DNA of 4,683 nt, from the IMG/VR virus record IMGVR_UViG_3300030438_000128; one strand, given 5' to 3'. A model generated the notes under the pieces. The model did no database searches and had not been told where the DNA came from. It was given only the letters and a program-made list of their open reading frames with translations. The position numbers and the translations under genes were made by a program. The stretch comes from a virus. Its lineage: Duplodnaviria; Heunggongvirae; Uroviricota; Caudoviricetes. Below are positions 306 to 4,159 of the stretch, piece after piece (the stretch's first letter is position 1; each line of letters opens with the position of its first letter).

Positions 306-1115
306 ATGACGAAAATTAGTGAACGATGGAAGCACAATGGCATTACTGAAGGTTATTGCAATATTTGTGGGAAATATGGCTTGCTCACAAAAGATCATGT
401 TCCTCCAAAGTGCGCCATAACCTTAGGCCCTGTTTTGCAGAAAACAGTTAGCGAATTTTTTGGTATTCAGGAACCAGTTAAACCATTAAATGCTAAAAAT
501 GGCTCTTATTTCAGAACCATTTGCAGCCACTGTAACAATAAGGTATTAGGTGGGCTCGATGTTGCAATTGAAAATGTAACAAAGTCCTTTAAAGAACAGT
601 TAAGTCGATATATGAATGGTATGAATGTATATCCATTCATTAGAATACCTTTTGATAGCATATCTTTCACTAAGGCTATGATTGGGCACGTGCTATCAGC
701 AACTTCAGTTGAAGATTGTAAAAAAGAACCCGTAGATAGCCCCTTCTATACACCTTTAAAGGATTATGTTTTGGGTAAAAATTCAAGTTTTGAGGAAACT
801 CATGATATTTACTACTGGTTTTACCCACACAGAATGCACATATCCGCTCAAAGTGTAGCATTTATGAACGAAGGACATGTGGCATTTATTTGTGCTTTAC
901 ATTTTTTTCCTATCGGTTTTATTATCACAATGAAAAATGAAGGAACATACCCTGCCCACTCTACAAAATTAGAACTTGAAGATAAATTCCTTACATTTAA
1001 TATGACCTCTATAAATTATGAGTATACGACATTTCCATTTGTAAATCTTAAGGGAAACCAAATGTATGCGATAAGCAACGGTCATACTTGTGTGAGTTAT
1101 CCAATAATTAAGTGA
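306..1115 (+). CDS. HNH-motif nuclease-domain protein with an uncharacterised ~190-aa C-terminal region; AT-rich prophage cargo gene
   Basis: 269-codon ORF from ATG 306 to TGA 1113-1115. GAGGG at 294-298 sits 7 nt upstream of the ATG. Residues 18-79 show C18-x2-C21, D30-H31-V-P-P, N62/N65 and C73-x2-C76-N-N-K, the spacing of an HNH (His-Me finger) zinc-ribbon nuclease core. Remainder has no motif I recognise. Composition is visibly AT-richer than the flanking genes (by eye, not computed). Confidence 0.8.
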   Translation: MTKISERWKHNGITEGYCNICGKYGLLTKDHVPPKCAITLGPVLQKTVSEFFGIQEPVKPLNAKNGSYFRTICSHCNNKVLGGLDVAIENVTKSFKEQLSRYMNGMNVYPFIRIPFDSISFTKAMIGHVLSATSVEDCKKEPVDSPFYTPLKDYVLGKNSSFEETHDIYYWFYPHRMHISAQSVAFMNEGHVAFICALHFFPIGFIITMKNEGTYPAHSTKLELEDKFLTFNMTSINYEYTTFPFVNLKGNQMYAISNGHTCVSYPIIK

Positions 1116-1724: not shown

Positions 1725-2795
1725 TTACCCCCTGAAGCCCGGCGGAATTTCGTTATCCGGTTCAGAAATATGATTCACACAACGCTGGTTGTTCGTGCCG
1801 CTTACCGGGAGCAACCAGGGGTTCTCAAAATTCCGGTCCGGTCCAAAAAACGTCGTCGCTCGCTGAACAAATTCCGTTCCCGTTTTCCCGGTAGCCGCCA
1901 AGTATCTTGCGTAACGCCTCACGCCATCCAGCATGGCTTCTGGTGGCACCCCCTCGCGTAATCTGGCCTTCCAGGCACTGAAAGCGGATTTCTTCGGGTT
2001 TGCTCCGGCACGCAACGGGTACTCCCGCCAGACCTGTTCGAACACATCCGGATAATCCACTCGTCCCACAGACTGCCCGGTGTTTTCCGGGACTACCCGA
2101 TCGGCTTCCCGCTGAATGGCGGAATCGGCTTCGGGCTGCTGCAGTTGGTGTGATTGCTCCGGCCTTGCGGTCATCACCTGCTGCACAGCGCCCGAATCGG
2201 CTTTCAGCGCATACGCTGAATCGGCTTCCGGTGTCGTGCCTGCTGGCTGACCAAGATTGACGGTCTGAACATCCCCTGCCTGGTTCGTGGCGTTTTTTAC
2301 GCCATGGACCATAGTGTTTTGATCTTCGTGATCTGTATCTTTATCTGTATCTTTATCTGTCGTGACTCGTCGTGACATGTGCGTGACATTTCGTGACGCG
2401 CCGTGACAATCGCCATTTTGTTCCCGCTTTCTTTCCCTCTCTCGCTGCGCCCTCTTGCGCTCTGCAGGAGATTTTGCGGTTTGCGAAATATTGCCGTTGT
2501 CCTCTTTAAGCACCTGGCGTTTTTCCCATCCAGTGATTAAATCACCATCAAGTACCCGCCCCTGCATCGTCTGCAAAATTGAATCAATTACCTCTTCTGT
2601 CACGTCGAGCGCACTTGCCAAATCTTCTGTCGTGACATCAATGTGACCTCGCGTGACATTTCGTGACGCGCTCACCAGGAGGTGGATATACACTGCCATC
2701 ACTGTTGCAATTGGCTGCCCTGACACTCTGGCAATTGTTCGCCACTTAGGGTCATTTGGCATGTCATGCCATAATCTGAGCCAGGCGTTAGCCAT
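1725..2795 (-). CDS. Phage replication initiator / replisome organiser (lambda O / YdaU-like), with internal iteron repeats
   Basis: ORF track gives 1725..2801 from a GTG; the ATG two codons downstream (complement of 2793-2795) has a better-spaced GAGG RBS, so 2795 is the preferred start. N-terminus (WLRLWHDMPNDPKWRTIARVSGQPIATVMAVYIHLL...) resembles the N-terminal domain of phage replisome organisers; C-terminus (FEQVWREYPLRAGANPKKSAFSAWKARL...) resembles phage replication-protein C-terminal motifs. Both are recalled family resemblance, not searched. Charged low-complexity linker in the middle. Confidence 0.75.
   Translation of the reverse strand: MANAWLRLWHDMPNDPKWRTIARVSGQPIATVMAVYIHLLVSASRNVTRGHIDVTTEDLASALDVTEEVIDSILQTMQGRVLDGDLITGWEKRQVLKEDNGNISQTAKSPAERKRAQRERERKREQNGDCHGASRNVTHMSRRVTTDKDTDKDTDHEDQNTMVHGVKNATNQAGDVQTVNLGQPAGTTPEADSAYALKADSGAVQQVMTARPEQSHQLQQPEADSAIQREADRVVPENTGQSVGRVDYPDVFEQVWREYPLRAGANPKKSAFSAWKARLREGVPPEAMLDGVRRYARYLAATGKTGTEFVQRATTFFGPDRNFENPWLLPVSGTNNQRCVNHISEPDNEIPPGFRG
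2331..2360. repeat. 12-bp tandem repeat ATCTGTATCTTT x2.5, in-frame within the initiator gene
   Basis: Directly visible: atctgtatcttt (2331-2342), atctgtatcttt (2343-2354), atctgt (2355-2360). On the - strand it encodes the TDKDTDKDTD stretch of the initiator. Confidence 0.9.
2361..2407. repeat. Iteron-like cluster A: five CGTGAC hexamers at ~10-bp spacing, including one copy of a 21-bp exact repeat
   Basis: CGTGAC at 2361, 2371, 2382, 2392 and 2402. The 21-mer GCGTGACATTTCGTGACGCGC at 2381-2401 is identical to 2651-2671. The repeat is seen directly; origin function is inferred. Confidence 0.85.
2631..2671. repeat. Iteron-like cluster B: CGTGAC/TGTGAC hexamers plus the second copy of the 21-bp exact repeat
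   Basis: CGTGAC at 2631, 2652 and 2662, TGTGAC at 2642. The 21-mer at 2651-2671 matches 2381-2401 exactly, offset by 270 bp (90 codons, in frame), and both copies encode ASRNVT in the initiator. Confidence 0.85.
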
Positions 2796-3581: not shown

Positions 3582-3656
3582 AGAATACCCACAGGTAAAC
3601 AAAAGTCAATACCCACAGGTTGTTTACCTTGCGGTAATCGCATCTATTATTTACCT
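3582..3656. promoter_or_regulatory. Divergent PR-like / PRM-like promoter region with two operator repeats
   Basis: O1 TACCCACAGGTA (3586-3597) and O2 TACCCACAGGTT (3610-3621), centres 24 bp apart. - strand promoter candidate: -35 TTGACT (complement of 3604-3609), 16-bp spacer, -10 TATTCT (complement of 3582-3587). + strand promoter candidate: -35 GTTTAC/TTTACC (3622-3628), -10 TATTAT (3645-3650), ending 6 nt before the repressor ATG. Inverted repeat GGTAAACAA (3594-3602) / TTGTTTACC (3620-3628). Confidence 0.5.
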
Positions 3657-4118: not shown

Positions 4119-4159
4119 TACCCATGGGTATTTACTTTTTAAATACCTATGGGTATCCT
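4119..4159 (+). promoter_or_regulatory. PL-like promoter with two 12-bp palindromic operators
   Basis: O3 TACCCATGGGTA (4119-4130) is a perfect palindrome; O4 TACCTATGGGTA (4144-4155) has one mismatch; centres are 25 bp apart. Candidate -35 TTTACT (4131-4136), 17-bp spacer, -10 TATCCT (4154-4159), reading into the downstream + strand small genes. Confidence 0.5.

Follow-up and report, generated by a model that had tools for sequence, protein, structure and literature searches.

A Probable Two-Part Replication Origin of Co-Varying Hexamer Arrays inside a Prophage Initiator Gene

A stretch of viral DNA of 4,683 nucleotides (IMG/VR virus record IMGVR_UViG_3300030438_000128), the whole of which is called the window here, carries on its minus strand (1725-2795) a gene that according to its open reading frame (ORF), PGAP annotation, and PHROG comparison encodes a replication initiator, or "phage replisome organizer". 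Inside this gene there are two separate arrays of a 6-bp repeat, and these repeats are probably the initiator-binding sites (iterons) of a two-part replication origin that is located within the initiator's own gene. That iterons of an origin are embedded in the initiator gene had been proposed in an earlier, sequence-only reading of the window, and the proposal is now supported by the conservation of synonymous sites in the repeats and by an AT-rich tract that abuts the array in the linker of the protein.

Results

Two Hexamer Arrays in One Reading Frame

The repeat unit is GTCACG on the gene strand, i.e., CGTGAC on the plus strand. Array B (2361-2407, minus strand) consists of five direct copies of GTCACG with spacings of 10, 10, 11, and 10 bp along the gene strand, which means that CGTGAC starts at plus-strand positions 2361, 2371, 2382, 2392, and 2402, and it is located in the codons of an interdomain linker, C130-T145. 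Array A (2631-2671, minus strand) reads GTCACG, GTCACG, GTCACA, and GTCACG along the gene strand, with CGTGAC starting at plus-strand positions 2631, 2652, and 2662 and TGTGAC at 2642, and it codes for residues A43-T55 (ASRNVTRGHIDVT). Its orientation and its spacing of 10-11 bp are those of array B. In addition, there is a single inverted hexamer (2599-2604, plus strand), which reads CGTGAC on the gene strand and occupies codons D64-V65-T66 in the turn of the helix-turn-helix (HTH). The hexamer thus occurs in 10 copies in the window, where 1.5 are expected, and none of 200 shuffled sequences contained 10 copies or more.

Five CGTGAC at a spacing of about 10 bp in 2361-2407 and four CGTGAC or TGTGAC in 2631-2667 had been pointed out in the sequence-only reading, and all these positions are confirmed. 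The same is true of a 21-mer, GCGTGACATTTCGTGACGCGC, which had been said to recur exactly 270 bp away and which is found at 2381-2401 and at 2651-2671, with zero such matches expected. An 11-mer, TCTGTCGTGAC, is also exactly repeated, at 2356 and 2626, again with an offset of 270 bp. The two arrays are, as stated before, 90 codons apart in one minus-strand ORF, and both encode the peptide ASRNVT.

The description of the two clusters as "in-frame" holds for the 270-bp offset between them, but it does not hold within the arrays, where the codon phases of successive hexamers are 2, 3, 1, 3, and 1 for array B and 3, 1, 2, and 1 for array A. From the presence of hexamers in all three codon phases follows that the repeat is a repeat of DNA and not of peptide. 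The recurring peptides "CH..SR.VT" and "ASRNVT" are, accordingly, a by-product of the DNA period of 10-11 bp.

Purifying Selection on Synonymous Sites

Homologues of the N-terminal domain of the initiator (N-domain) were collected from several sources. When one genome per species was scanned, the domain was found, mostly at 50-73% identity, in Serratia, Rahnella, Pantoea, Pseudomonas, Bordetella, Aquitalea, Acidovorax, Chromobacterium, Gilvimarinus, and others; in prophages across Proteobacteria the identity is 50-78%. A scan of viral contigs with protein alignment gave 80 identical Escherichia coli copies, and a degenerate DNA pattern that excluded the E. coli codon added another 114 loci from viral contigs. 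The combined set contains 109 distinct N-domains, 103 of which are long enough for analysis. Both arrays occur at the same alignment positions in most loci, and the homologues have three to six linker copies of a hexamer at the site of array B, even though the protein sequence of the linker cannot be aligned.

Three sequences (P0019, L023, and L039) with no or almost no differences from prophage genes of E. coli or Castellaniella are attributed to Staphylococcus saprophyticus, an Anaerolineaceae metagenome-assembled genome (MAG), and a Collinsella MAG; these attributions are probably due to contamination or mis-binning of the source assemblies.

The analysis of synonymous sites was repeated on 41 sequences with less than 85% mutual nucleotide identity, picked by their linker motif alone as a guard against circular selection. 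At third positions inside hexamers the major codon has a share of 0.94 and the entropy is 0.36 bits, while the corresponding values for 48 other conserved degenerate codons are 0.53 and 1.47 bits (Mann-Whitney p = 2.4e-6). Conservation of the repeats beyond the needs of the protein had been suggested as a check in the sequence-only reading, and the outcome of this check is strongly positive. In a set of 19 diverse sequences, the hexamer codons GTC, ACG, GGT, CAC, GTC, and ACG are present in 19 out of 19 cases each, while the third base of the Arg codon in the spacer (R51) is A in eight cases, T in five, C in five, and G in one. The hexamers of array B in the 41 sequences are distributed over codon phases 1, 2, and 3 as 45, 42, and 47, from which follows that the peptide of the linker is dictated by the DNA and not the other way around. 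Taken together, these comparisons of coding sequences indicate that the repeats are DNA-level elements under purifying selection.

One may ask whether the repeats could instead reflect a need of the protein, in the form of a duplicated ASRNVT module, or a structure in the mRNA. ASRNVT is encoded by both arrays, and RNAalifold predicts that the first hexamer and the inverted copy pair over 6 bp (-4.9 kcal/mol, z = -3.3), as such explanations would have it. However, the occurrence of hexamers in every codon phase, with their inner synonymous positions fixed and the adjacent ones saturated, rules out that the peptide is what is repeated, and the hexamers persist in the DNA where the linker peptide is unalignable between homologues. 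Direct repeats, furthermore, cannot pair with each other, and the RNA stem takes in only two of the ten copies; mRNA structure is rejected as the main explanation, as at most one direct copy pairs with the inverted one. That protein-level or mRNA-level constraints account for the repeats is therefore hardly credible.

The Two Arrays Change Motif Together

When the 103 distinct loci are classed by the dominant spaced 6-mer of the linker only, array A is found to contain the motif of its own linker and virtually none of the others. In the GTCACG class (67 loci), array A has on average 3.64 copies of the class motif and 0.01-0.07 copies of the motifs of other classes; in the GTAACG class (nine loci) the numbers are 2.78 and 0.00-0.22, and in the CGAACG class (13 loci) they are 2.77 and 0.00-0.15. 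The remaining coding sequence of the N-domain has close to zero motif copies. The same pattern is seen at a larger distance in the Ralstonia phage Firinga, with an initiator that is 37% identical, where GCAACG occurs five times in array A (gene positions 130-182) and four times in array B (401-431), along with inverted copies. The two-part layout, which had been called atypical when it was first noted, is in other words real and conserved, and its two arrays change motif jointly.

The inverted hexamer is present in about 56% of the loci in the GTCACG class, and the codon is GTG in 97% of the sequences that have Val at its position. In two loci of another class (L024 and L133), GTAACG arrays are accompanied by inverted copies reading CGTTAC.

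A neighbour-joining tree computed for the N-domain without its loop, which is indicative only since the alignment is short, has GTAACG loci at three or more places and CGAACG loci at two or more. This scatter of the motif classes over the tree implies repeated joint switches. The longest exact string shared by arrays A and B has 21 nt in the window; in other lineages, such strings have 27-36 nt and differ in sequence. Such long shared strings point to concerted evolution of the two arrays, either by recurrent gene conversion or by selection for identical pairs of sites.

An AT-Rich Tract Adjoins Array B

Directly after the last hexamer of array B there is an AT-rich, purine-skewed tract of GATAAA/GATACA type (2320-2360; ACAGATAAAGATACAGATAAAGATACAGAT on the gene strand), coding for TDKDTDKDTD. 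The GC fraction at 2320-2359 is 0.325, which is the lowest value in the GC profile over 2200-2799. In the 67 loci of the GTCACG class, AT makes up 70% of the 40 nt that follow the last linker hexamer, compared with 44% of the gene as a whole, and purines make up 73% on the coding strand; an AT content of 65% or more in this 40-nt stretch is found in 82% of these loci. In the alignment of homologues, the linker array is always directly followed by a AGATAAAGATAAAG-type sequence, and the AT-rich tract is present also in the classes with different iterons. We propose that 2320-2360 is a DNA-unwinding element. That the tract is kept when the iterons are exchanged fits with a generic unwinding element situated next to repeats that determine specificity.

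Just past the tract lies an imperfect inverted repeat (2281-2311) with 13-nt arms, 85% complementary, and a 5-nt loop. This hairpin of 13 pairs, together with a T-rich tail, reads as an intrinsic terminator on the plus strand, which is antisense to the initiator gene. A role as a third element of the origin, like the palindrome of ori-lambda, is possible, and so is the termination of an antisense transcript. At the equivalent position in 100 loci, inverted repeats are weakly enriched, with a mean of 5.6 compared with 4.5 for shuffled sequences and p <= 0.05 in 23% of the loci. A conserved palindrome after the tract, as in lambda, was for this reason not retained as a feature of the family, although one is present in the window.

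Array A does not have an AT-rich tract of its own, and this brings in an alternative for its role. Array B and the AT-rich tract could constitute the whole origin, and array A could be a control element. Initiator bound there, within the 5' part of its own coding region, could block transcription (autorepression), array A could serve as a sink that titrates the initiator, or it could be a partner in handcuffing that restricts firing. Models for such an element are incA of P1, incC of F, and the operator inverted repeats of iteron plasmids. The copy number of array A is also highly variable, in line with this alternative: the loop that it encodes is 15-38 amino acids long with only an Arg-Gly pair conserved, hexamers of both orientations are more numerous in longer loops, and the Pseudomonas and Bordetella versions have tight GTCACGTGAC palindromes. 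In this variability, and in its palindromes, array A resembles the dimer-binding operators of iteron plasmids. Some members of the family, furthermore, lack array A but keep their linker repeats. All this is, however, also compatible with an activating role of array A, and its agreement with array B in orientation and spacing is what would be expected if the two took part in one joint complex. Negative control of copy number is, in addition, less obviously needed in the lytic replication of a phage. We regard a pure control function of array A as a real but minor possibility.

The Protein and the Placement of the Repeats

The initiator has 356 amino acids when counted from the ATG at 2795, but the ORF finder allows also a GTG start at 2801. 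Over its full length the protein matches PHROG 3729 ("replication initiation protein"; E = 2e-257), and for its C-terminal half there are matches to DnaD-like and primosomal PHROGs. The ORF is named "phage replisome organizer" by PGAP in the E. coli genome NZ_CP086678. The last 24 residues (1725-1800) weakly resemble the C-terminus of the primosomal protein DnaT, in a match (NCBIfam, E = 7.5e-4) that falls far short of the family cut-off. No Pfam family matches the whole protein at E <= 0.01, and sequence searches of Pfam, NCBIfam, and the Protein Data Bank (PDB) gave no usable placement of the N-domain.

In an AlphaFold2 (AF2) model of residues 1-139, with a mean pLDDT of 77 and a core above 90, helices at 4-14, 16-25, 29-45, 56-63, and 67-77 are followed by a beta hairpin at 78-88. 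This is the layout of a winged helix, and residues 1-96 from the ATG (2508-2795, minus strand) form the predicted N-terminal winged-helix domain. The model has one such domain and not a tandem pair. Foldseek comparison with the PDB gave weak matches, all of them to winged-helix regulators, with no match to RepA, RepE, or pi.

The codons of array A cover the last part of helix 29-45 together with the loop that precedes the HTH. Array A is thereby placed within the codons of the predicted DNA-binding domain itself and not in a duplicated protein module, which disagrees with the earlier idea of a duplicated initiator-binding module. The codons of array B form the linker after a basic helix, P110-Q126 (2418-2468, minus strand; AERKRAQRERERKREQ), which the AF2 model places with moderate confidence between the wing and array B, and which is a candidate for an additional DNA-contacting element.

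One feature of the basic helix varies with the motif class: it reads ERKRxQRERE together with GTCACG, ERxRxY/FRE together with GTAACG, and ERAKxWRE together with CGAACG. The helix is from these correlations a candidate specificity determinant outside the loop, with L026 as an exception that breaks the rule.

A Model for the Two-Part Origin

The general model that we find likely is that the winged-helix domain binds to both arrays and that these act together, either in a looped or wrapped complex or with array A as a control site. In the proposed mechanism, array B and the adjoining AT-rich tract in the interdomain linker would be the core origin. Array A and the inverted copy, located 230-270 bp upstream in the codons of a tolerant loop of the winged helix, would be auxiliary sites for the same protein. 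The N-terminal domain would bind as monomers, one per helical turn, to one face of each array, and protein-protein contacts would then join the arrays by looping or wrapping of the intervening approximately 230 bp. The joined complex would destabilise the AT-rich tract, and the DnaT/DnaD-like C-terminal domain would recruit the host helicase; in relatives, a phage-encoded helicase would take over this part. The identity of the binding protein, the looping, the unwinding, and the recruitment of helicase are all steps that we infer.

The route to the helicase varies among the carriers. The E. coli version has a C-terminal domain of DnaT/DnaD type but lacks a loader gene. The gene next to the initiator encodes a primase-helicase in P. 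aeruginosa phages, among them circular "plasmids" of about 50 kb, and it is dnaB in Firinga. The N-domain and its repeats are, in other words, joined right after the AT-rich tract to varied C-termini and partners, from which follows that the N-domain plus origin cassette is a mobile module.

One of these "plasmids" (L235; CP137943, circular, 50.9 kb, from P. aeruginosa) is the complete genome of a lambdoid phage that was deposited as a plasmid. In its segment 4968-7726 there is a two-array initiator gene, with the arrays at 5129-5165 and 5388-5423, and after it a gene for a primase-helicase of 609 amino acids. This initiator gene is absent from the PLSDB gene table.

The module-like behaviour of the cassette, along with the fact that co-inheritance of sites and gene leaves the identity of the binder unspecified, could also be taken to mean that the hexamers are bound by another protein, either an early phage protein such as the DUF977/Ren-like or the YdaT/CII-like product or a host factor, or that they are mainly conserved DNA joints for the recombinational shuffling of initiator modules. 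However, the neighbouring genes vary with the host while the arrays persist, and the winged-helix domain is the sole gene product that always accompanies them. A role as recombination joints, moreover, leaves the one-turn spacing, the fixed orientation, and the joint switching of motifs unexplained. These alternatives are very unlikely.

Several observations weigh against binding of both arrays by the winged-helix domain in a two-part origin. The arrays are always inherited together with the initiator gene, and their covariation is for this reason no proof that the initiator binds to them. Linker repeats occur without array A in the group L028/L030/L035, in the ACTACG class, and in L239, which means that membership of the family does not require array A. 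The distances from A to B vary, with clusters at 249, 258, 267, 270, and 360 bp, and the resultant of the helical phase difference between the arrays, 0.7-0.8, is not separable from shared ancestry. The conserved core of the repeat is 6 bp with weak flanks, which is short for specific recognition. The assignment of a winged helix rests on an AF2 model of medium confidence and weak fold matches, and the initiator has no match by sequence in the PDB. Finally, searches of the literature for the motif, for the GATAAAG tract, and for iterons in replisome-organizer and lambdoid genes found no description of the family or of a two-part layout inside a gene.

Seven loci (L036, L038, L134, L135, L150, L214, and L225) have the same N-domain and linker repeats of TACTACGTA or ACTACG type. 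They lack array A, and their C-terminal part is longer and of a different kind, with a motif, "YVY..V...G.S.NPWAR", that looks nuclease-like. The proteins of this subgroup may not be initiators of the same kind.

A further reading concerns the loop and its sites. The codons of a DNA-binding domain would here contain the binding sites of that same domain, and gene conversion would match array A to the iterons of the origin. The outcome would be a looped origin within the gene, where newly made initiator, not yet far from its template, would be captured in cis by array A and handed over to array B. In the extreme form of this idea, the loop peptide that the iterons dictate (RNVTRGH.DVT, NATERGRTQ, or GNAGVTQ) would help to recognise the iterons, and site and reader would change in one mutational step. 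We consider this reading doubtful.

Genomic Context of the Initiator Gene

E. coli EFF60 (NZ_CP086678) contains the window with 100% identity, in a Qin-like lambdoid prophage that adjoins ompW. The order of genes in the prophage module, cro/cII/replication, is that of an early-right region. Upstream of the initiator, in the direction of transcription, there are a divergent gene for a DicA-like repressor, a YdaS/Cro-like gene, and a YdaT/CII-like gene, and downstream of it there is a DUF977/Ren-like gene (1262-1684). A 98.6% identical gene in the deposited phage genome vB_EcoS-689R5 is annotated as "DNA replication protein O". No P-, DnaC-, or DnaB-like gene follows the initiator in the E. coli version, including that of vB_EcoS-689R5. 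A promoter scan of the gene strand over 2300-2800 found no convincing internal promoter.

On the strand opposite to the early-right genes there is an ORF of 269 amino acids (306-1115, plus strand) with CxxC...H and CxxC motifs. Its sole match is a PHROG of unknown function (21495); PADLOC gave no hit, and the comparison with HNH_5 gave E = 0.29. It is possibly a moron or a defence gene, at the place where one might look for a helicase loader.

Downstream of the replication module there is an insertion of IS5, with the end of the copy at 1-150. A terminal inverted repeat, CTTATTCGCACCTTCC, is found at about 135-150 and is followed by CTAA; other E. coli genomes align to the window from 151 onward only, and the IS5 transposase gene of the source genome has its end at window position 4.

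A 12-bp near-palindrome, TACCYAYRGGTA, occurs in four copies (3586-3597, 3610-3621, 4119-4130, and 4144-4155), with seven strand matches where 0.05 are expected. Two of the copies are in the divergent promoter region between the Cro-like and DicA-like genes and two are just downstream of the repressor gene, and they are probably immunity operators with a split like that of OR and OL.

Discussion

The known carriers of the two arrays include the E. coli phages Evi and Tritos and the vB_Eco series, Aeromonas pAEv1818, the Pseudomonas phages phi1, P7869, and Marin, and Ralstonia Firinga, none of which is a model system. As far as can be judged from sequence, the core origin would be an ordinary member of the kind in which iterons are located within a gene, and the new part would be array A, conserved and co-evolving in the codons of the DNA-binding domain. 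The two-array origin, as proposed, is kept by phages and prophages whose hosts include Enterobacteria, Pseudomonas, Aeromonas, Bordetella, and Ralstonia, among others. The arrays provide a clean natural case of overlapping codes, where a protein and a protein-binding DNA would be under simultaneous selection, with at least four motif switches visible. Every hexamer in array A can be removed by synonymous changes, and the role of the auxiliary array is therefore testable without alteration of the protein. Hexamer arrays together with a GATAAA tract would, furthermore, mark the origin and the type of replication specificity in a widespread class of temperate phages, and this class includes phages that have been assembled as "plasmids" of about 50 kb in clinical P. 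aeruginosa.

An origin within the initiator gene is known from the textbooks for lambda. In lambda and Stx phages, iterons and an AT-rich tract are located in the middle of gene O, with four repeats in lambda and six in Stx phages (PMC7466680). Here, array B and the AT-rich tract are similarly placed at codons 130-160 out of 356, between the predicted DNA-binding part, including the basic helix, and the DnaD/DnaT-like C-terminal part. As in ori-lambda, at least three direct repeats are followed at once by an AT-rich tract, possibly with a palindrome beyond, and the number of repeats varies among relatives. Gene 18 of phage L has six 11-bp repeats (PMC8022706), and the repeats studied here are likewise short, with a period of about 11 bp. 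Gene 18 of P22 belongs with these origins as well. There are also clear differences. The initiator is not detectable as a homologue of lambda O, since it has no Pfam match, including Phage_rep_O, and it is not followed by a P-like or DnaC-like gene. The iterons of lambda are about 18-20 bp with internal symmetry, whereas the repeat considered here is a 6-bp core every 10-11 bp with no dyad symmetry. For lambda, P22, and L there is, furthermore, no description of another conserved array in the codons of the DNA-binding domain, at a distance of 230-270 bp upstream.

The replisome organizer of phage SPP1, G38P, is the closest relative with a name and offers another parallel. The oriL of SPP1 is located inside gene 38 and has repeated boxes beside an AT-rich unwinding element, and G38P binds also to a second region, oriR (PMC5737612). 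The name given by NCBI to the initiator studied here is "phage replisome organizer", and PHROG 4880 and 5968, both "replisome organizer", match it weakly (E = 5e-6 and 3e-4); the Pfam family Phage_rep_org_N gave no match. Array B and the AT-rich tract would correspond to the repeat boxes and unwinding element of oriL within an organizer gene, and array A would be a putative second region. The regions oriL and oriR are far apart on the SPP1 genome and only oriL is within the gene, whereas here both arrays are in the gene and about 260 bp apart. The hosts here are, moreover, Proteobacteria.

From the side of the plasmids, the closest likeness is the presence of a second array of the same motif. 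In incC and incA of P1, incB and incC of F, the gamma origin of R6K with its distant iterons, and ori and crr of phage P4, two separate arrays cooperate or exert control via pairing of initiators or looping, and the initiators are winged-helix proteins. The Rep proteins of P1, F, and R6K have tandem winged helices, whereas the AF2 model of the present initiator has a single winged-helix-like domain. The arrays of P1, F, R6K, and P4 flank rep or lie kilobases away, and they are non-coding, with units of 19-22 bp (8 bp in P4). In the gene described here, by contrast, both arrays overlap coding sequence, and one of them overlaps the codons of the DNA-binding domain.

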